Assembly (NCBI GenBank): GCA_048884965.1 | Contig: JBHLQH010000014.1 | Coordinates: 27,375 to 91,374, forward strand | Direction: 5' to 3' | Length of the DNA: 64,000 nt | From: Candidatus Thorarchaeota archaeon | GTDB lineage: Archaea > Asgardarchaeota > Thorarchaeia > Thorarchaeales > Thorarchaeaceae | Shown here: in pieces, positions 26,584 through 36,103 of the stretch | Layout: each line of letters begins with the position of its first letter | Numbering within the stretch: the stretch's first letter is position 1 | Notes under the pieces: model-generated | Told to the model about the DNA's origin: nothing | Databases searched by the model: none | What the model saw: the letters and a program-made list of their open reading frames with translations, nothing else | Translations under genes and position numbers: made by a program

Positions 26584-28305
26584 ATGCAAAAAAACCACCA
26601 CATGATTATTGGAATAACTCTAATACTTTTCATGATGATTTCTGTTGTTCCTTTGACTGTTCAACCAGTTTCAGTTCTGGTCGTCGAGGAAGTGTCTTTC
26701 ACTCCATCTGAAACATATGAGTGGACAGTTTTTGAAGAGAACATGAATGTCACAACCTTCGCTTCTCCCGATGGAAGCAAGGATGAGTTATGGCATTTTC
26801 TGAATTCAGCTGAAGAGAGCATCTATGTTGAAATCTTCGGAATAAATAGTCCATACATACTTGATCTCATCCATGAGCTACATGATACCAAGCCATCTCT
26901 AGAGATGAAGTTCCTAATAGGTGAAGGTAGTATTGGATATTATTCTCAGAATGATTACGTAGCAAACAATCTCACTGAGCTCGGATACGAAGTGAAATGG
27001 ACCAATGGAGATGATTTCACATATGCTCACCAAAAATTCGTGATAATAGACAATGAAACTACCCTTATACACTCAGGTAATTGGGCGAAAACCAGTTTTC
27101 CAGAAAGTAATGGAAAGGCAAATCGGGAGTGGAGTATCGCAATGACTAGCACAGCAGTTACTGAGTACTACAGGTCCGTCTTCGATGGGGACTGGATTAA
27201 TGGTACATATTACAATGCCATAACCGATGGAACTGGTGATCCTTTCACCTATACCTATTCAACTAGTACATATCCTCGTCCATTCGCAGAGGCGGGTAAA
27301 TTCAGTGGCAATATTAAAGTTATACCCATCTTCAGTCCTGACACAAGCCTAGATGGTATCCTATACTGCATTAACGTGGCTCAAGCAACTCTTGATATCC
27401 AGATCCCCTATTTCACGAATGTCGGTGATGCAGGTGCAGTAGATCAAGTCCTAAATGCAATTCTCGCGGCTAAGGAAAGAGGCGTGACTGTTCGTGTCAT
27501 CTCAGAGGAAGAATATGACTGGGATCTTGTGGAAGAGATGTTCCTTGAGCACGATATCCCAATTGTGTGGCAAGATACTCGATGGTTCACAGCTAACCAC
27601 AACAAAGGTATCATCGCTGACGGGCGCATTGTCCTTGTTAGCAGTATCAACTATAGCGATGGAAGTATTTCAGAGAATCGTGAGGCTGGTGTGATTATAG
27701 AGCATGAAGGTATTGCTCAATGGTATCAAGCAATATACGACTTTGATTGGGGGATCGCTGGTGGAGATTCCTTAGATGATGTAAACGTCTATTGGACTCC
27801 GAATATCCCTACTAGCACATCTGAAATTAACGTGACTGTATATGGTCATATGCTATTTGAAGATACTATTGCTGAAGTAGAACTTGATGTTAAGGTAAAT
27901 GATGGTGCATGGTCGAATAATACGATTACTGCGAATGTCTACGAGTCAGCTGAAGAAGACCCTGAGAATTATTTCTATGTTATTCCTGCACAAGCTGACG
28001 GAACGAATATCACAGTTGTTGGTAGAATACGTGTTGGTTCGACATGGCACACTGGAGTTCCTATGGTCATTCGAGTTAGAGATTCCATTGCTTCACCAAC
28101 CTCTACTGATACAACACCTACTACTCCAACAACCACGACTGATCCTCTTGCTGAATTCCTTGCTGAATTTGGTATATGGATTGCAGTTGCTGGAATAGGT
28201 GTGATATGTGGCGGAGGAAGTGCAGTCGCATACAAGAAGGGAAAGATACCTGGAGTCAGCTCAAAGAAAACTACTCGTCGAAGTAGTAAGAAGAAGAAGA
28301 AGTAA
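26584..28305 (+). CDS. Extracellular membrane-anchored phospholipase D-superfamily protein
   Basis: Two HKD motifs (HQKFVIID, HNKGIIAD); signal peptide; T/P linker; C-terminal TM and poly-K tail. Confidence 0.9.
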   Translation: MQKNHHMIIGITLILFMMISVVPLTVQPVSVLVVEEVSFTPSETYEWTVFEENMNVTTFASPDGSKDELWHFLNSAEESIYVEIFGINSPYILDLIHELHDTKPSLEMKFLIGEGSIGYYSQNDYVANNLTELGYEVKWTNGDDFTYAHQKFVIIDNETTLIHSGNWAKTSFPESNGKANREWSIAMTSTAVTEYYRSVFDGDWINGTYYNAITDGTGDPFTYTYSTSTYPRPFAEAGKFSGNIKVIPIFSPDTSLDGILYCINVAQATLDIQIPYFTNVGDAGAVDQVLNAILAAKERGVTVRVISEEEYDWDLVEEMFLEHDIPIVWQDTRWFTANHNKGIIADGRIVLVSSINYSDGSISENREAGVIIEHEGIAQWYQAIYDFDWGIAGGDSLDDVNVYWTPNIPTSTSEINVTVYGHMLFEDTIAEVELDVKVNDGAWSNNTITANVYESAEEDPENYFYVIPAQADGTNITVVGRIRVGSTWHTGVPMVIRVRDSIASPTSTDTTPTTPTTTTDPLAEFLAEFGIWIAVAGIGVICGGGSAVAYKKGKIPGVSSKKTTRRSSKKKKK

Positions 28306-28355
28306 TACATTGGTCGGTGGTCGGATCATAGTCTGACCACTTCCCTCCCTTTTTT

Positions 28356-28961
28356 CTATGCCATTTCACCTGCAGAACTCTCTGCCATTTGGGCAAATTT
28401 CTCACAGCTTTCTGCATCACGAAGTTCATTCCGCTTCTTATGCAATGCAGCTGCAATGCGATATGCTCTGGCAACCTCAGTCCATTTGGCTTGTGCATCC
28501 AGACAAAGTGCCAATGCCTTCCAAGTTTCCGGATTTTCTGAGTCGTATTTGAGTGACTCATTGAAGGCATCAATTGCTTCTTGAATTCGCATTAGGCTCT
28601 CCAATGCCCTTGCCTTCCTCTCAAAGAGAATAGCACTTGCTGGATTTGATTTCAGACCCGCCTTTGCTGCAGTCAGTGCTTCTTCAAATGCCCCTATTGT
28701 AAGAAATGCTTCTACTTTATTAGAGTGCGCTTCATCGCTATCCGGTTTTATCTTAATGGCTTTATCAAAGACAACTATAGCCTCTGATTGTTCTCCAATG
28801 TGAATATGAGCCAAACCCATCTCGTTCAAGACTTGGATTGAACTTGGATTGATTGTTAGAGCTTTTTTGAATTCCGCGATGGCCTTCTTATTCTCACCTC
28901 TAGCTCTAAAATTACGCGCTAGCTTCACAATAGATTCAAAGTCTTGACCACTGGATGACAT
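28356..28961 (-). CDS. Tetratricopeptide repeat protein
   Basis: Successive TPR consensus units (AIAEFKKALTINP, AIVVFDKAIKIKP). Confidence 0.85.
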   Translation of the reverse strand: MSSSGQDFESIVKLARNFRARGENKKAIAEFKKALTINPSSIQVLNEMGLAHIHIGEQSEAIVVFDKAIKIKPDSDEAHSNKVEAFLTIGAFEEALTAAKAGLKSNPASAILFERKARALESLMRIQEAIDAFNESLKYDSENPETWKALALCLDAQAKWTEVARAYRIAAALHKKRNELRDAESCEKFAQMAESSAGEMA

Positions 28962-29089
28962 ACTTGCTCTTCGGAAAGAAATGGTATTAATGATATTGGC
29001 GATGAACTTTTAGACCCTATGATATCTGACCCCAAGGGTTTTAACGCGGACCGACAAAAAAAGGGTTCAGTTAGAAAGAGGCGAATCAT

Positions 29090-29632
29090 ATGGTCAGAGA
29101 TGAGGATTTGTTCGATGATGTTGATGAGGACGAGGAAGACGTTTTCTTCCCTGATGAAGATGAAGAGGAAGTTGAGTATAGGCGTGGAACTACATCTCTG
29201 AATGAAATTCCTGACAAGCCGTCCTTCATGGATGATCCGTGGCCTCCCATTGCATTCATTCTAATACTGATAGGATTTGGATTTACTCTTCTAACTCCTG
29301 TTGATATCTGGTCTCAACACGTATACTATCTTGTAACAACTTACTTGCTTCTCGTTTTTGTTGCGATCGCCAGCGTGATATCATTGGGTGTCTGGAAGAA
29401 AGCAGGTGGATCTCGTCTGCGATTCGGTGGTATAACTAATCTACTAGTAGTTCTGATATGTGGTGCATTCGGCACCGTTGACACCCTCTTGGTAGTCACT
29501 ACTGGAAATCCACTGATTCCAGGAACAAACACTCCTGTGTTACTGCTAGCGTTCGTTATAGTGATATTCTCTCTCTACAGCCTTTGGCTGATTCAAAGGA
29601 CATTCGCTACTGACGTTCCCAAACAGCAGTAA
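29090..29632 (+). CDS. 4-TM membrane protein with acidic N-terminal tail
   Basis: D/E-rich first 30 aa followed by four hydrophobic segments. Confidence 0.75.
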   Translation: MVRDEDLFDDVDEDEEDVFFPDEDEEEVEYRRGTTSLNEIPDKPSFMDDPWPPIAFILILIGFGFTLLTPVDIWSQHVYYLVTTYLLLVFVAIASVISLGVWKKAGGSRLRFGGITNLLVVLICGAFGTVDTLLVVTTGNPLIPGTNTPVLLLAFVIVIFSLYSLWLIQRTFATDVPKQQ

Positions 29633-29636
29633 ATCG

Positions 29637-30014
29637 GTGAGAGTCTTGACTAATGAGAGCCAAACCCTTGAGGAATTGATGGCTCTCATTAGAGACTTCA
29701 TTCGTGAGCGTGACTGGGAACATTTTCAGAAACCCGCAGCTTTAGCTATGTCTGCGTCAATAGAAATGGGTGAACTTTTAGAAAGATTTCAGTGGCTCAC
29801 CAATGAGGAAATCTCTACTCTTCTCGAGGATGATAGGTATAAGGAGAGCATTGCTGATGAAATTGCTGATATCGTTATCTACATGATCCGGTTAGCTGAT
29901 ACGACAAACATAGGTCTGACTGATGCAATTCTAGACAAAATGAAAAAGAATGAAGGCAAGTATCCCGCAGACGAATGGAGAGGACGAATTCCCGATAAGG
30001 TCAGAAATCCATAG
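29637..30014 (+). CDS. MazG-like nucleotide pyrophosphohydrolase (dCTPase-like)
   Basis: ERDWEHFQKP..EMGELLERFQW..DEIADI..KNEGKYP. Confidence 0.9.
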   Translation: MRVLTNESQTLEELMALIRDFIRERDWEHFQKPAALAMSASIEMGELLERFQWLTNEEISTLLEDDRYKESIADEIADIVIYMIRLADTTNIGLTDAILDKMKKNEGKYPADEWRGRIPDKVRNP

Positions 30015-30801
30015 CAAGGCGCTTGTAAAGTTCTGGTCTTCGATCGCTGAGTCGATGATTCCTTGGTGTGAGAGTCTTGTCATTAGCTTCGCTCAGATCG
30101 ATATCGACATACTCGACCCCAATTGATCCGTTCGGAATTCGGAGGAGGATTCTACCTTTTGTGTCAACAATCTGTGAGTTACCGGAGAATTCTAGGCCTC
30201 GTTCAGAGCCAACCCTGTTTGCTGTTGCTGAGAACACTCCATTCTCCAATGATCGTGTCTTCATTGCGGTTTGGCAGAATTCTAGTACGAGATTCGATGG
30301 ATGAAGAATGACCTGTGCTCCTTTTAGTGTGAGAATACGTGCCATCTCAGGAAAAATCCAATCCCAGCAAATCATTACACCAAAATTAGAGTCTTGAAAG
30401 AGAACGACTGGGGGCTCATCATTTCCTGGAATGAACCAATCCTTCTCATCATTGAATAGATGTGCCTTTCGATATGTTGCTAGATGATTCCCATTTCCGA
30501 ATATTCCTGCGGAATTGTAGAGGCTTGAGCCATCGTATTCACAAATACCTGAAACAACTAGCCTCTGATTTTTGGACCAAGCGAGCAATTCTTTTGAGAA
30601 TGGACCTAGAGGTATCGTTTCGGCATATGCCAATACTTCTTCTTTCGATTCAAAGACATATCCAGAATTGGCAAGTTCTGGAAGAACGAGTACCTCAACT
30701 TCCTTTTTATCAGCATCGTTCAAAATATCTCTCAAGGTTTCCAGATTCTCTTCCAATGCTCCTATCTTTGGCTCCATCTGCCCAATACCAAGTCTAGTCA
30801 T
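30001..30801 (-). CDS. Nitrilase/carbon-nitrogen hydrolase family
   Basis: Catalytic E-K-C triad: LPELANSGY, YRKAHL, ICWDWIFPE. Confidence 0.92.
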   Translation of the reverse strand: MTRLGIGQMEPKIGALEENLETLRDILNDADKKEVEVLVLPELANSGYVFESKEEVLAYAETIPLGPFSKELLAWSKNQRLVVSGICEYDGSSLYNSAGIFGNGNHLATYRKAHLFNDEKDWFIPGNDEPPVVLFQDSNFGVMICWDWIFPEMARILTLKGAQVILHPSNLVLEFCQTAMKTRSLENGVFSATANRVGSERGLEFSGNSQIVDTKGRILLRIPNGSIGVEYVDIDLSEANDKTLTPRNHRLSDRRPELYKRLAMDF

Positions 30802-30912
30802 TGTCCATCACTATCTCCATGAATCTCAAATGAGGCTATTACTCATTTGGTTAGAATTTAGCAGAATATCTTTATTTCAGATGATTAGAATTAATTGAAC
30901 AGGGTGGTTTCA

Positions 30913-30999
30913 TTGATTAATGACGAAGGAATGGAAGAGTGGGACGACGAAGACGAGGATTGGGATGATGATGAATGGGAAGATGATGAAGACTGGTAG
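30913..30999 (+). CDS. Unannotated 28-aa acidic Trp-repeat micropeptide 1 (MINDEGMEEWDDEDEDWDDDEWEDDEDW)
   Basis: Manual translation; GGGTGG SD-like site before the TTG (alternative ATG at 30931); mixed synonymous codons; similar peptide encoded at 32106. Confidence 0.7.
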   Translation: MINDEGMEEWDDEDEDWDDDEWEDDEDW

Positions 31000-31008
31000 T
31001 ATCCAGTT

Positions 31009-31821
31009 CTATCTTTCTTGAATCTTCCTTCTAGTGCGAAGCATGAAATTATAGACTCGTTTCAACTGCTTCTCCTCATCATAGTGCCAGAGGGCTCGAA
31101 GGATCTTATGCCTATTCCTTAGCTGCTTCAATTTTCGGGATTGATTGGAGTATTGCTCTCGTAGTTTCTTTGTTGAAATCGATGTTTCTTTGATATGGGG
31201 TTCAATGGCCTTCAATTTACTTTCGATTGATCCTACTTCATGTTCGATCATTCTTTTGTAGGCTTCTTGTATCAGAGACTCTCCTTGCTTATTGACTAAT
31301 CTTAGTCGAGCCCATCTCTTTACATGAGCCCCTACACTCCGTGCTTCCTTTGCGAATTCGTTGGAGTCAAAGAGACTTGTGCCATTCTCTTGTGTGAAGT
31401 ATCGAGCTTTCTCCTTTGCCCGCATGTGGGGCAGCAGAATCACACCAGGGCGAAGGCGAATGCAGGGTGTTCTATGAATGATTCTTTGCATCTTCTTCTT
31501 TTGTTGTTGGGTAGGCTTTTCAAAGGAGAAGACCACAATGCTATACATGGGTTCCTGATATGGTACCTTTTTCCTGGAATCTCCTTTTGGCATCTCTCGT
31601 GCTTTTCTGAATCTCACGTGTGGGATATCCTCTAAGAACTCAATGATTTTCCGCTTCTTCCTCTCAACAATGAAGATACCAGATCCTACCTTCTTGATTT
31701 CTGGCAGTTGCGGTAAATTCTTCTTGGGTGAGATCTCTCTCGAGAGAATGACTAGCCTGCTGCGTTGATCCAGACGCAATGACGGAATTTTCTGGTCATC
31801 GACTGCTTCGGAATCTGACAA
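31009..31821 (-). CDS. Highly basic protein with Cas2/PaaX/ChrB-N-like segment and helical C-terminus
   Basis: About 64 K/R vs about 32 D/E by hand count; YSIVVFSF..KKKMQRII..IRLRPGVILLP pattern; GGTGG SD. Confidence 0.65.
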   Translation of the reverse strand: MSDSEAVDDQKIPSLRLDQRSRLVILSREISPKKNLPQLPEIKKVGSGIFIVERKKRKIIEFLEDIPHVRFRKAREMPKGDSRKKVPYQEPMYSIVVFSFEKPTQQQKKKMQRIIHRTPCIRLRPGVILLPHMRAKEKARYFTQENGTSLFDSNEFAKEARSVGAHVKRWARLRLVNKQGESLIQEAYKRMIEHEVGSIESKLKAIEPHIKETSISTKKLREQYSNQSRKLKQLRNRHKILRALWHYDEEKQLKRVYNFMLRTRRKIQER

Positions 31822-32105
31822 CTAAAAATCAACCACCACTATATGGTCTTGTGAGTGTATAGGTTTTTCTTTTATTGATTTCTTATACCATGAGGGACAG
31901 GCAGGAATCCATTTTATTTTCCTCTTCTGCATTTTTAAAGGTATAATAGAACTTATTCGTGGAATTGGGGATGTGATTTCCAATATTCTAGAAAAAGGAA
32001 TGAATAAAGTATTCTGGATTCATATTCTGGAGTTATTTCTTCCCTTGGTTTTCATACACATCCTTAATTTTTAGTTATCTACACAGGACGTGAGGTGAAA
32101 TAGTC

Positions 32106-32198
32106 GTGTTTCGTTTCTTTGATGAAGATGAAGATTTTGATGACGACGACTGGGACGACGATGACGATGACTGGGAAGACGACGACGATGATTGGTAA
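32106..32198 (+). CDS. Unannotated 30-aa acidic Trp-repeat micropeptide 2 (MFRFFDEDEDFDDDDWDDDDDDWEDDDDDW)
   Basis: Strong GAGGTGA SD at 32092-32098, GTG start, mixed GAT/GAC codons, downstream hairpin. Confidence 0.75.
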   Translation: MFRFFDEDEDFDDDDWDDDDDDWEDDDDDW

Positions 32199-32241
32199 GT
32201 CGTTTCCTCAGTGATGTCTTCAATCACTTGAAGAAAACTTG

Positions 32242-32266
32242 GGGAGCGGGAATATTCTTCGCTCCC
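32242..32266. terminator. Hairpin terminator between micropeptide 2 and convergent MTAP
   Basis: GGGAGCG...CGCTCCC stem followed by TTTGTCTTTG. Confidence 0.6.
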
Positions 32267-32276
32267 TTTGTCTTTG

Positions 32277-33140
32277 TTAGAATAAACCGTTTTTCATTGC
32301 CGTTTGGCAATCGCAAGATGCGTCTTTTGGAATATGTTTGATCATCTCGAATATGAGTTTCTTCACCCGCTCGACATTCTGAGACATGGTCCTCAAAACG
32401 AGCTCGTGCGTAACTGGGCCTTCCTCTCCCTGCACGTCATAGTCTGTTGGCATCGACACATTGACGAAGCAAATTCCAGCTTCTCTTGCAAGTGAGGTTT
32501 CTGGATATGCTGTCATGCCTATCACGTCCCATCCATTACTGTTAAAGAACATAGACTCTGCACGTGATGAGAAACGAGGTCCATTAATGCAAACATAGGT
32601 GCCACCATTATGAGCTTTGTAGTTCAGCTTTCCAGCAGTTTCGAAAGCGACTTTCCTCAGTTCAGGACAAAATGGTTCTGCAAATGGCAAATGACCGATT
32701 GTTCCTCCTTCGAAAAAAGTATCCTTTCTCTGACCAAATGTTCTATCGAATATCTGATCTGCCATGACAAACTCACCTAGTTTGATCTTCTCAGGCTGGA
32801 GGCTTCCAGTTGCTGCAGGTGAGATTATCCTCTTCACACCCAATGCTTTCATTCCCCAAATGTTCGCTCGATAATTGATTGCATGAGGCGGTATGATATG
32901 TCCTCGACCATGTCTGGCTAGGAACGCGATACTTCGTCCTTCTATCTTTCCAATTATGAAATTGTCTGATGGAGCTCCATATGGAGTAAATACCTTGATC
33001 TCTATAGGATCCTTAATGACTTCTGGATCGTAGTATCCGCTACCTCCGAGTAACCCAATCTCGATGGGAAGCAGTGCTTCCAGTTCATCTCTTTTGCTTC
33101 TATCAAGTGGTACAAAATCCAACTTTGCTTCAAATGCCAT
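32277..33140 (-). CDS. mtnP: S-methyl-5'-thioadenosine phosphorylase
   Basis: GGSG, TPYGAPS, RHGRGH..PPHAINYRANI, GPRFSSRAES, GMT, TDYD. Confidence 0.9.
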   Translation of the reverse strand: MAFEAKLDFVPLDRSKRDELEALLPIEIGLLGGSGYYDPEVIKDPIEIKVFTPYGAPSDNFIIGKIEGRSIAFLARHGRGHIIPPHAINYRANIWGMKALGVKRIISPAATGSLQPEKIKLGEFVMADQIFDRTFGQRKDTFFEGGTIGHLPFAEPFCPELRKVAFETAGKLNYKAHNGGTYVCINGPRFSSRAESMFFNSNGWDVIGMTAYPETSLAREAGICFVNVSMPTDYDVQGEEGPVTHELVLRTMSQNVERVKKLIFEMIKHIPKDASCDCQTAMKNGLF

Positions 33141-33239
33141 CTCTCTTCTAACTCCTGAAGCTTGCTACCCTTCTTCTAACTAGTCTCTCATTTATAACTG
33201 ATTTCCAATGGCGAAATAAAACTCGGACAAGGACTTCCG

Positions 33240-33908
33240 TTATTGTGTGATTCTCCAGATCTTGTCCAGTGGGTATTGGATCCTCCCAAGGTATCCCATG
33301 TGGGCTTTGATCTTGGAGAGATTCTCATCTGAGAGTACTATGTTGTTGTATTCTCGGAGATGCTTTTTGACCTCAGGTGTGCTCATCTCCTTAACCTTCT
33401 CACCTTCAAAGATCTTCATGATGAGGGCTGATAGGTCTTCAAAGAAGTTCCATGGCCATATCTCCCACGCCCAAGTGACCTCTACTCCATAATAATCAGG
33501 AACGAATTTAGAGCCTGCAATATGCATGAGCGTGGCTGTCTTGATCTCAGATGGCTTTCCTGTTTCTTGGATATGTCTGACAGCAGTCATGAGGCTCTCA
33601 CCAGTATCTGTAATATCATCAACAACAAGAACCTTCATTCCTTCAACATCCCCTACTAGAGGGCATGAGAGCTGTGCCTTGCCATCTCTTGTAGCAGTGA
33701 CTCCCCAGTGATCGACCTTAACTGAAAATAGATTCTTCACACCCAACAAGTCACATTGAATTCTTGCATGTACCCAACCTCCACGAGCAATTCCAATGAT
33801 TGCTTCAGGCCGCCAGTTAGACTCCTTGATCTTATGGGCAGTCTGATAGGCATAGTTCGCAATATCATCATAATCCAGCACGTAGCAGAGAGGTCCTTTG
33901 AGCTCCAT
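33240..33908 (-). CDS. Purine phosphoribosyltransferase (type I PRT)
   Basis: IARGGW and PRPP-binding VLVVDDITDTGES; PDYY...WEIWPW. Confidence 0.88.
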   Translation of the reverse strand: MELKGPLCYVLDYDDIANYAYQTAHKIKESNWRPEAIIGIARGGWVHARIQCDLLGVKNLFSVKVDHWGVTATRDGKAQLSCPLVGDVEGMKVLVVDDITDTGESLMTAVRHIQETGKPSEIKTATLMHIAGSKFVPDYYGVEVTWAWEIWPWNFFEDLSALIMKIFEGEKVKEMSTPEVKKHLREYNNIVLSDENLSKIKAHMGYLGRIQYPLDKIWRITQ

Positions 33909-33985
33909 TGTATCCACCAAGTCACTTTCATTTGGAAATGGAATCGGATAAAAGTGTGACTACTGTACCAATAAACGCTACGTAT

Positions 33986-34834
33986 CTAGTTATTGTCAAT
34001 CCAAAGTAAGCGAACAGAATCGAATTCGCCAGGTAGATATTCTATCTTGACCTTGACACAGTCCCCTTCCTTAACTTTTCGAGGTATTTCAAATGGTAAA
34101 AACAGCTCCTTCCATCCATCTTCCATATCCAAGATAATTTCGTCATCAAGCGAAGCTTGGAACATCCCGCACAGTCCATGAGCAATTCCATCCTGTTTGA
34201 TATCAAAGGTTAGTGTCTTTCGAACACGGTAATCATCATCTAACGATCGGAGGTCAAACTTTACGATTTCTTCTATATCCGACAGCTCTATCCTCTCTTC
34301 TGCTCCTACCGTCTGAGGTCGTGATGGAAATCGAAGATCTTGGAAAGCAAAACGACTCAACATACTTTCGCTCTGACTCAATATTCCAAATATCTGGACT
34401 GACTTAGGAAGGAGAATTCCTTCTGGTTTCAAAACGTGTTTTGTGATATGAAGCGATGCAGGAATCTGCTGCTCGATGAGCATCATTGAGGAAAGCATCT
34501 CACAAAGAACTATGTCATACTTCTCATGAGGCTTGAACTCAGAGAAGTGCATTGTCTTGAATTCTATCGCGCTATCTAGCTTGTTGTGTTCTGCAGCTTT
34601 TTTCGCATAGAGAATAGAGTCTTCATGCACATCGATTGCAGTTACTTTCGCAGCTCCTGCTTTCGCTGCCAGCAATGCAAGAATTCCAGTTCCCGTTCCG
34701 ATATCCGCAACCTTCATATCAGGTTCAACTATTCGTTCAATCACCTGAGCAAATTTCTGAATCCGCTTTTTTTGACTAAGCAAGCTTATTGCTCCAAGAA
34801 GATCGAATGGTGTTGCGTATTTCCTACCTGACAT
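33986..34834 (-). CDS. PRMT-like (protein arginine methyltransferase fold) SAM-dependent methyltransferase
   Basis: VADIGTGTGILALLAAKAGA; double-E loop DIVLCEMLSSMMLIEQ; LKPEGILLP; beta-barrel-like C-terminus. Confidence 0.75.
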   Translation of the reverse strand: MSGRKYATPFDLLGAISLLSQKKRIQKFAQVIERIVEPDMKVADIGTGTGILALLAAKAGAAKVTAIDVHEDSILYAKKAAEHNKLDSAIEFKTMHFSEFKPHEKYDIVLCEMLSSMMLIEQQIPASLHITKHVLKPEGILLPKSVQIFGILSQSESMLSRFAFQDLRFPSRPQTVGAEERIELSDIEEIVKFDLRSLDDDYRVRKTLTFDIKQDGIAHGLCGMFQASLDDEIILDMEDGWKELFLPFEIPRKVKEGDCVKVKIEYLPGEFDSVRLLWIDNN

Positions 34835-34888
34835 CTCTTTTTTGCCATAACGAATCCTACTTATAACAAGAATGTTGGCTATTGTCTA

Positions 34889-36103
34889 GTGCCGAAGAGG
34901 TCTATTGAGAGGAAAAACCACGATTCTGGAGAACAAATCGATTTGACTGACGAGAGAATCCGAAAAGCAATAGAAGCAATCGAAGACTCATGCAATGAAG
35001 AAGCCATATCAATCCTCGAACCGATTGCCAAGGATTTGGATCCCGATCCGGATGCCCTCGTCTATCTTGGACTTGCCTATATTCAAGCTGAGCGTCCTGT
35101 AGATGCAGTCAAAGTCCTTCGACAAGCACAAGAGATGGTAGAGGATCATTGTGTACTGGCTCTTTTCCTGGGTCGTGCTTTGAGAAGTCTAGGGAAATAT
35201 GAAGAAGCTGAGGATGAACTTCGCCGAGCAATTGAGCTGGAGCCAGAAGATCCAGAAGCCTGGATCGAACTTGGAAAGCTTTTGTATTCCAAGGGGAATT
35301 ATGGAGAAGCAGCTCGCATCATGGATGAAGCAATCATTCTATTCCCTGAGGATCTTTCGCTTCGAGGGACACTTGCTCTTGCGCTGTATAAGCTGGGCGA
35401 TTTCACCCAAGCTACAAATGAATGGGCAAACCTTCACAAGTTAGATCCTGACCTCATGGCTGCAATGACGAATCTTGCATATCTACTTCTTTTGCAAGAT
35501 AGAACCAATGAAGCACTTCCGCTTGTTGAAGAGGCCTACAAGAGAGACTCTGAGGATTATCGTGCGTTGGTTTTGAAGGGTATGGTTTCATTGACAGCTG
35601 ATGAGAAAGACAAGGCGAAAATCTATTTCGAGAAGATCTTAGAGAACCACTCAGATAATGTTGAAGCACTTTCGCGCCTTGCCGTTATCGAATATGAGAA
35701 CGGGGATGCTGAGAAATGTACCGCTCTTCTTGATTACGCTGAGAAACAGATTAACTCAGAACAGGAATGTTGGAGGGGTCTCTGTTTTGCCTATTCACGG
35801 TTGGGCCTTCAAGACAAGCATATTGAATGCTTAAAGAATTGGACTGAACAAGATCCCGGAGCAGCAGCACCTTGGGTTTCACTCGCAATTGAATATGATC
35901 GAGAGGGAAGAAAAGACTTGGCTTTGGGTGCTTGGCGGAAAGCAATGGAGTTACGGGGATATATCCGAATTCATTGTGCCAATTGCAGGCAGAGTATCAA
36001 GTTTGAGATAACCAATGCCTCCGCATTCGAACCATATGAACCGCAGAAGTGCGACAATTGTGGGACAAAGATTGAGATGCCTATCGGCCTTCTAGCCCTC
36101 TGA
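34889..36103 (+). CDS. TPR repeat protein with C-terminal zinc ribbon
   Basis: Many TPR units; CANC...CDNC at the end. Confidence 0.85.
   Translation: MPKRSIERKNHDSGEQIDLTDERIRKAIEAIEDSCNEEAISILEPIAKDLDPDPDALVYLGLAYIQAERPVDAVKVLRQAQEMVEDHCVLALFLGRALRSLGKYEEAEDELRRAIELEPEDPEAWIELGKLLYSKGNYGEAARIMDEAIILFPEDLSLRGTLALALYKLGDFTQATNEWANLHKLDPDLMAAMTNLAYLLLLQDRTNEALPLVEEAYKRDSEDYRALVLKGMVSLTADEKDKAKIYFEKILENHSDNVEALSRLAVIEYENGDAEKCTALLDYAEKQINSEQECWRGLCFAYSRLGLQDKHIECLKNWTEQDPGAAAPWVSLAIEYDREGRKDLALGAWRKAMELRGYIRIHCANCRQSIKFEITNASAFEPYEPQKCDNCGTKIEMPIGLLAL

Follow-up and report, generated by a model that had tools for sequence, protein, structure and literature searches.

Two micro-genes coding for ultra-acidic, tryptophan-bearing peptides, named here peptide 1 and peptide 2, bracket the gene of a strongly basic protein (Table 1) in the window analysed, a 64,000-nucleotide stretch of the genome of a Candidatus Thorarchaeota archaeon (assembly GCA_048884965.1, contig JBHLQH010000014.1, positions 27,375 to 91,374 of the forward strand). 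Comparison with other loci demonstrates, at the level of gene content, a conserved and one-sided partnership, in which the basic gene is nearly always accompanied by a peptide and the peptide is also found alone. We propose, tentatively and with a probability of about 0.45, that peptide and basic protein form a polyanion/polycation pair which is probably linked to translation. Peptides 1 and 2 belong to an archaeal family of hyper-acidic, Trp-punctuated and usually Trp-terminated products of 25-60 residues. "Family" is used here for a shared design together with shared genomic partners, since homology between low-complexity sequences of different phyla is unprovable by sequence.

Linkage of the acidic peptides to the basic protein

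Sixty relatives were searched with the basic protein, and the flanks of the loci so found were then scanned for small open reading frames (micro-ORFs). Of 36 other genomes of the same family, 24 encode the protein. Among the 25 Thorarchaeota genomes with the basic gene, 23 have a single copy, which lies in a conserved housekeeping neighbourhood. At nearly all of the basic-gene loci scanned, an Asp/Glu/Trp ORF of 26-35 residues was found 160-420 bp upstream in divergent orientation. When the loci were extended to all those with a profile-detectable homologue, an acidic-W micro-ORF was present within ~520 bp at 34 of 37 distinct loci, and at 30 of the 31 that are flanked by 600 bp or more on each side. 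The initial annotation of this region, made from the sequence alone, had suggested such a scan of homologue flanks for D/E/W ORFs; its outcome, 34 loci out of 37, is that the peptides are conserved and linked to homologues of the basic protein.

Part of this linkage in Thorarchaeota reflects a single syntenic block of MTAP, peptide, basic protein, an optional second peptide, CN-hydrolase and MazG. The pair is kept in seven Thorarchaeota loci with other neighbours (L011, L012, L014, L017, L022, L024 and L030) and beside remote homologues of ~20-25% identity in other contexts and orientations (L033, L044, L063, L065, L066, L201, L202 and L203), which shows that the association is more than synteny. 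One genome, G005, has two basic-peptide pairs (L003 and L030); the basic protein of L030 groups with that of L012, from another genus, at 100/99 tree support, which suggests lateral transfer or bin contamination (6%).

The charges of the two partners also appear to be related. The mean charge of the basic protein is +35 at two-peptide loci versus +25 at one-peptide loci (Mann-Whitney p 4e-4 over loci, 0.006 over genus means), and the summed charge of the peptides tracks that of the protein (Spearman rho 0.56). In the window, the two peptides together carry -39 against +32 for the protein. On the tree of basic proteins the two-peptide state requires 2-5 changes, and since it stems from a handful of lineages the charge signal is suggestive only.

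The peptides as conserved micro-genes

A search of all six frames of the 4,089,206-bp genome for at least 12 D/E and at least two W per 20 residues returned peptides 1 and 2 and nothing else; as these lie 1.1 kb apart, a chance pair is excluded. At the DNA level the pattern TGG(GAN)4-N3-9-TGG(GAN)3 occurs in 72 of 301 genomes of the phylum, and the reversed control pattern in 0 of 301. Both peptides end in D-W-stop. For peptide 1 there is an in-frame alternative ATG at 30931, which would give a product of 22 amino acids.

A GAGGTGA-type Shine-Dalgarno site (GGTG/GAGG) precedes the start by 5-8 nt in 25 of 27 peptide loci, the 16 nt upstream having been considered, and comparable ribosome-binding sites precede the starts of the downstream-type peptides of other genera. 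The hairpin that follows peptide 2 is unusually stable (-26.9 kcal/mol for an 80-nt region, z = -3.8, with no shuffled sequence folding equally well), and equivalent hairpins follow the stops of orthologues in several loci.

Peptide 2 orthologues from 24 loci were aligned (alignment A3). An M-x-F start is common to them, Trp recurs every 5-8 residues, and the C-terminal residue is W in 19 and F in 2. Differences between the orthologues amount to 0.15, 0.16 and 0.53 at codon positions 1, 2 and 3, respectively, so that the wobble position varies 3.4 times as much as positions 1-2. TGG and the GA of the acidic codons stay constant and the third base is free, which is a coding signature. One orthologue is annotated as a called 30-aa gene in GCA_016840825.1. 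On this evidence peptide 2 is a true conserved gene. The initial annotation fared well here: its coordinates, Asp/Glu counts and D-W-stop ends for the two ORFs agree with the sequence and the ORF list, the Shine-Dalgarno-like sites that it mentioned were located as GGGTGG and GAGGTGA, and its hairpin after peptide 2 was found at 32241-32267. Its treatment of the ORFs as real micro-genes is supported.

The downstream type, at the position of peptide 1, is represented by peptides from 10 loci (alignment A2). It is heterogeneous, with a [WL]PEE[DFY]W motif in many members, and of peptide 1 no more than a short, decayed remnant is left in the closest relative (L031). The set of copies differs even within the genus, G003 having the downstream copy only and G001 and G005 the upstream copy only. 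Peptide 1 is, as far as these alignments go, a lineage-variable second copy.

The peptides, which are presumably disordered, gave no match in Pfam, and the peptide region gave no significant match in Rfam. Profiles built from the peptide alignments matched nothing, either in their own genome or among PDB sequences; as the peptides are low in complexity, DNA patterns took the place of profiles. An exact look-up of five peptides in a protein collection found none, for which translation from alternative starts may account in part, and a feature search of a structural atlas with peptide 2 gave scores below 0.9. In the literature on Asgard DSS1, Sem1 and microproteins and on small acidic Trp proteins of archaea, we found no description of this family.

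That the peptides are never made, the DNA being a GA-rich low-complexity RNA or DNA element or a set of slippage-generated repeats, is hardly credible. The DNA is indeed a (GAN)n-TGG repeat, and 22-23 of the 24 orthologues have open reverse frames as well. Against this, ribosome-binding site, start and post-Trp stop are all conserved at the correct spacing, third positions are free while TGG and GA stay, Rfam has no matching element, and the pattern read in reverse is missing from all 301 genomes.

The basic protein

The gene of the basic protein is convergent with peptide 1, the two stops being 9 bp apart, and a spacer of 284 bp separates it from the divergent peptide 2. The initial annotation had described the product of this gene as a highly basic protein of about +30, which the computed net charge supports, the gene being on the minus strand. 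All homologues are strongly basic as well (+17 to +42), and the positive charge is spread over all three predicted domains. Eight residues are invariant or nearly so, namely K109, R113, R124, R134, R169, W170, W245 and Y257.

No Pfam, NCBIfam or PADLOC family was found for the protein. A profile search revealed only 92 relatives among 1.84 billion cluster representatives, a search of a genome-contig collection found no relative, and a sequence search of the PDB with alignment A1 gave coiled-coil noise only. An AlphaFold model (pLDDT 83, pTM 0.81) comprises a beta-rich ferredoxin-like domain (residues ~21-73), a further ferredoxin-like domain (~93-175) and a three-helix bundle (178-269). Its best PDB match by Foldseek is PaaX (8a39), and this is weak (E 0.011). 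With the full model, VIA structure searches returned mainly three-helix bundles of a generic kind. The N-terminal half alone gave only generic ferredoxin-like matches (Z <=5.2), with Cas2 among them at Z ~4. In the structural atlas the protein's own Thorarchaeota cluster scored TM 0.84, and two Bathyarchaeota clusters scored 0.71-0.74 by query and 0.77-0.81 by row. ChrB-family clusters with ChrB_N and PaaX_M domains followed at 0.42-0.52 by query and up to 0.68 by row (residues 74-270).

Profile matches among the homologues are faint. The distant homologue P0041 matches PaaX_M, which Pfam describes as a "central Cas2-like domain", over its N-terminal domain (E 1e-4, 22.6 bits, cut-off 24). One of the 30 members of A1 matches when these are compared with PaaX_M and ChrB_N (E 0.026), and there is a faint match to a Cas2 profile in one distant homologue (E 0.0045). 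The model reads as two Cas2-like ferredoxin domains and a helical bundle, a remote relative of ChrB_N/PaaX which lacks the winged helix-turn-helix (wHTH). PaaX and ChrB (PaaX_M, PF20803; ChrB_N, PF20229) have a Cas2-like domain followed by a helical one, a fold that the basic protein may share, residues 74-270 of its model superposing on clusters with these domains at the TM scores given above. Unlike them, the basic protein has no Pfam match, no wHTH and no ChrB_C; it possesses an extra N-terminal ferredoxin-like domain, which is beta-rich where PaaX has a winged helix, as well as a charge of ~+30, and it has no paa or chr genes around it. Its neighbours are genes for MTAP, CN-hydrolase, a MazG-like protein, PRTase and a methyltransferase; no cas gene or CRISPR array, as would go with Cas2 in CRISPR adaptation, is among them.

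Wider distribution and the ABCE1 neighbourhood

One genome per prokaryotic species was scanned for a W-(D/E)4-7 repeat pattern. In archaea the repeats mostly form micro-ORFs of 28-60 residues, with records from Thermoproteota, Desulfurococcales, Bathyarchaeota, Brockarchaeota, Micrarchaeota, Hermodarchaeota, Promethearchaeota and Thorarchaeota. Among bacteria (Gemmatimonadota, Planctomycetota, Chloroflexota, Clostridia and others), most of the repeats form the tail of a protein of 60-600 residues.

At six loci (L065, L087, L105, L169, L191 and L192) the micro-ORF lies immediately 5' of ABCE1 on the same strand; these are Thermoproteota, Bathyarchaeota, Brockarchaeota and Desulfurococcaceae records and one contig of a metagenome-assembled genome. 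On three contigs that encode a remote homologue of the basic protein (L065, L202 and L203) the gene order is Cgi121, basic protein, peptide, ABCE1.

Several other occurrences were noted. In family f22 of the phylum (L038:1-915 and L040), a SAVED-domain protein (PF18145, E 3.5e-19) is encoded directly upstream of a micro-ORF whose product is lysine-rich in its N-terminal half and W-acidic in its C-terminal half (MNNGPKKKPAPKKPIYEEEEDEEDWEEEEDDWEDEDD). Two loci in Chloroflexota and Caldilineales records (L135 and L154) specify small proteins with a CPxCG zinc-ribbon-like motif and a W-acidic tail ending in F, for example ...CPECGAPGDAFSFWSDDDDEDLENWDEEDEDWDEEDEDWDDDDDDEDDF, and similar W-acidic tails occur on many Gemmatimonadota and Planctomycetota proteins of 60-400 aa. 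The stand-alone acidic-W microproteins of two f9 loci (L059 and L060) end in I-Y-S and F-Y-S. A hydrophobic-Tyr-X pattern at the C-terminus is known from proteasome activators, and the resemblance may be a coincidence.

Proposed function of the pair

The peptide is seen here as the putative polyanionic partner of the basic protein. Its Asp and Glu residues would imitate phosphates, and the spaced Trp residues would imitate bases or serve as hydrophobic anchors, so that the peptide could cover the conserved Arg/Lys/aromatic surface of the protein. Covered in this way, the protein would stay soluble, or off nucleic acid, until needed, and the number of peptide genes would be roughly matched to its positive charge. 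The dependence would run one way: the basic protein would be accompanied by a peptide throughout, and the peptide would also work without it. Judging by the Cgi121-basic-peptide-ABCE1 clusters and the peptide-ABCE1 pairs, the peptide, probably together with the basic protein, is likely to have its broader role in translation or in the recycling of ribosomes. A precedent for how an acidic peptide could act is offered by the tail of aP1, which binds aABCE1 via the C-terminal hydrophobic residues L103, L106 and F107 (PMC6125642).

In its acidic run and aromatic end the peptide also resembles the acidic tails of bacterial SSB and T7 gp2.5 and the DNA mimics of phages, which compete with nucleic acid for a basic surface. 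As a mimic it would differ from these in being a separate product of 30 residues, and neither a part of the binding protein nor a folded mimic. The initial annotation had already suggested that the peptides titrate the basic protein. The rise of protein charge with peptide number is what a titrating or neutralising partner would give and speaks for that part of the idea; the antitoxin form in which it was put is taken up below.

Several observations weigh against a dedicated pair. Much of the adjacency of peptide and basic gene within Thorarchaeota falls in the one syntenic block, and the correlation of charges ignores kinship and rests on about five lineages. At least 10 Thorarchaeota genomes, five of which were also searched by profile, have no detectable basic gene and keep an acidic-W micro-ORF beside MTAP, in several of them at the same site between MTAP and CN-hydrolase; the peptide is therefore not solely a dedicated partner. 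In other Asgard families, micro-ORFs of 40-75 residues stand alone, their flanks of 1.5 kb containing no basic-protein homologue. These begin with an 'M..GPKKK'-type N-terminus, continue with W-acidic repeats and often terminate in Y. The many unrelated bacterial proteins with W-acidic tails indicate that composition alone defines no homologous family. Finally, ABCE1 of the present genome is on another contig, with no micro-ORF upstream.

A broader form of the proposal is that the peptide is a pan-archaeal, hitherto unannotated translation factor which imitates, in soluble form, either the P-stalk tail or rRNA and tunes recycling by ABCE1, that the basic protein is its ribosome- or RNA-binding partner, and that the peptides could be prokaryotic counterparts, by analogy or ancestry, of DSS1-like adaptors. 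We regard this as unlikely.

Alternative explanations

Perhaps the basic protein is a DNA-binding regulator of the PaaX/ChrB kind, which controls itself and the neighbouring micro-gene and never touches the peptide, whose role would be unrelated. The divergent arrangement around a shared spacer of 160-420 bp at most Thorarchaeota loci would suit this, as would the ligand-responsive nature of PaaX and ChrB, the closest folds, and a regulator that always sits beside its target, with the target also occurring alone, fits the one-way dependence. We nevertheless consider it doubtful: neither a wHTH nor any other DNA-binding domain can be recognised, the N-terminal region being beta-rich and ferredoxin-like, and no palindromic operator was found in the spacer between basic gene and peptide 2. 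The co-directional order of basic gene, peptide and ABCE1 in remote lineages is unlike the layout of a regulator, and the correlation of charge with copy number is left unexplained. Equally, the peptide may be a free-standing mimic of the P-stalk tail, acting on ABCE1 or on translational GTPases in the way that aP1 does through its last 18 residues, with the basic protein as a side-player such as a ribosome-binding factor. The six loci with the micro-ORF directly 5' of ABCE1 favour such a role, and the aP1 tail does bind aABCE1 by its C-terminal hydrophobic residues (PMC6125642). Like that tail, the microprotein is acidic and presumably flexible with a hydrophobic or aromatic end; unlike it, the microprotein is free-standing and untethered to the ribosome, is much the more acidic of the two and has Trp where the tail has an L/F helix motif. 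The peptides contain no LxxLF-type stalk motif, no micro-ORF adjoins ABCE1 in this genome, and the tight Thorarchaeota link to the basic protein would have no explanation, so that we do not find this reading probable either. In the antitoxin-like form put forward in the initial annotation, the basic protein would be a Cas2/VapD-like nuclease toxin and the acidic peptide a nucleic-acid mimic serving as its antitoxin. Opposite charges, tight adjacency, the Cas2-like fold (Cas2 at Z ~4) and the faint Cas2 and PaaX_M matches of distant homologues are in its favour. It is improbable nonetheless, as the genes form no operon here and are monocistronic, divergent or convergent, and provided with their own signals. 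The basic gene is single-copy and syntenic in nearly all the Thorarchaeota genomes that have it, the supposed antitoxin persists without the toxin and is far more widespread, and no PADLOC or toxin-antitoxin family was matched.

The remaining explanation looks to eukaryotic partners: the peptides would be homologues or forerunners of DSS1/Sem1, or W-acidic ligands of Arp2/3, in the manner of the acidic (A/DDW) motif of WASP and cortactin, or of TPR proteins of the Asgard cytoskeleton. DSS1/Sem1 is a small, acidic, disordered adaptor and DNA mimic of eukaryotes which binds basic surfaces. The peptides have a similar composition; they too are tiny, Asp/Glu-rich and presumably disordered, with a few conserved Trp or aromatic anchors, and MAFFT aligned the [WL]PEE[DFY]W of the downstream type with EFPAEDW of DSS1. 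They are, on the other hand, half as long, lack the C-terminal helix and have a ChrB_N-like basic protein and ABCE1 as genomic partners, where DSS1 has PCI proteins and BRCA2. A search of 10 peptides against PF05160 gave no match at E up to 10; the composition filters of HMMER may hide weak matches here, and human DSS1, included in the search, scored 82 bits. In Smith-Waterman comparison with DSS1 the downstream type reached z 0.4-1.7, and z for the upstream type was mostly <2 (500-1000 shuffles per peptide). With no PF05160 match and a similarity no better than that of composition-matched shuffles, the peptides were rejected as DSS1 homologues, and DSS1 would be an analogue at most. Matches to PCI domains in the genome were weak winged-helix matches, found in control genomes too, and were not used. 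As for the cytoskeleton, a true actin is encoded in the genome (445 bits to Pfam Actin) and TPR genes lie near the locus; the latter belong to the local synteny, and ARPC4 (PF05856) was not found in the genome in a search made without a positive control. The same micro-ORFs occur in TACK archaea beside ABCE1. The Arp2/3 or cytoskeletal ligands of the initial annotation are thus unsupported, given that the micro-ORFs are found in Thermoproteota, Bathyarchaeota and Brockarchaeota, typically 5' of ABCE1. Taken as a whole, this explanation is very improbable. We retain the polyanion/polycation pair as our preferred reading.

Signals and other genes in the window

The coordinates of the genes and signals of the locus are listed in Table 1. 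The AT-rich block and the CCTTAATTnTTAG box were defined in an intergenic alignment of five regions. The box lies ~20 nt 5' of the Shine-Dalgarno site of peptide 2 and is common to close relatives and to many upstream sequences of orthologues. The 284-bp spacer also contains a 13-nt tandem direct repeat, TATTCTGGATTCA / TATTCTGGAGTTA (32010-32035, plus strand), which is only partly conserved in the nearest relative. A look for a lysine-rich micro-gene near the module, over positions 28000-35000, found none.

Table 1. Genes and candidate signals at the peptide/basic-protein locus (positions in the window)
Feature	Position	Strand	Description
GGGTGG, ribosome-binding-site-like	30902-30907	+	5 nt 5' of the peptide 1 TTG; read from the sequence
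Peptide 1 gene	30913-30999	+	TTG start; 28 aa, MINDEGMEEWDDEDEDWDDDEWEDDEDW; 19/28 D/E; downstream type, convergent with basic gene
Terminator-like hairpin with T-rich tail	30991-31008	+	Overlaps peptide 1 stop; weaker than the peptide 2 hairpin
Basic protein gene	31009-31821	-	270 aa, net charge +32; two predicted ferredoxin/Cas2-like domains and C-terminal three-helix bundle
AT-rich conserved block	31865-31885	-	Candidate TATA/BRE of basic gene; ~45-65 nt upstream of start; invariant columns 44-62
CCTTAATTnTTAG box (TTAATT)	32062-32074	+	Candidate TATA box of peptide 2; invariant block in intergenic alignment
GAGGTGA Shine-Dalgarno site	32092-32098	+	7 nt 5' of the peptide 2 GTG start
Peptide 2 gene	32106-32198	+	GTG start; 30 aa, MFRFFDEDEDFDDDDWDDDDDDWEDDDDDW; 21/30 D/E; upstream type, divergent from basic gene
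G+C-rich terminator hairpin with T-rich tail	32241-32267	+	Between peptide 2 and the convergent MTAP gene

Two further genes of the window were noted. The first (29090-29632, plus strand) codes for a predicted membrane protein of 180 aa with a strongly acidic, Phe-containing N-terminal tail, MVRDEDLFDDVDEDEEDVFFPDEDEEEVEY; it has no Pfam family and occupies the same position in the relative L031. The second (33986-34834, minus strand) specifies a 282-aa S-adenosylmethionine (SAM) methyltransferase with weak matches to the PRMT5 C-terminal and oligomerisation domains (PF17286, E 6e-5). It is co-oriented with the PRTase and MTAP genes, in a block that is conserved in L031.

Significance

If the proposal is right, archaea, including the Asgard lineages, would possess a class of genes, each about 30 codons long, that is widespread and that gene callers and protein databases have largely missed, conserved genes being hidden by cut-offs on ORF length. 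Their products would be among the most acidic proteins known and would have a fixed genomic partnership, either with a basic protein or with ABCE1, the essential ribosome-recycling ATPase. The pair would be a cheaply testable case, for which one synthetic peptide of 30 residues and one recombinant protein are required, and it would add a regulatory pair of the polyelectrolyte type, possibly acting in translation, to the biology of the archaea.

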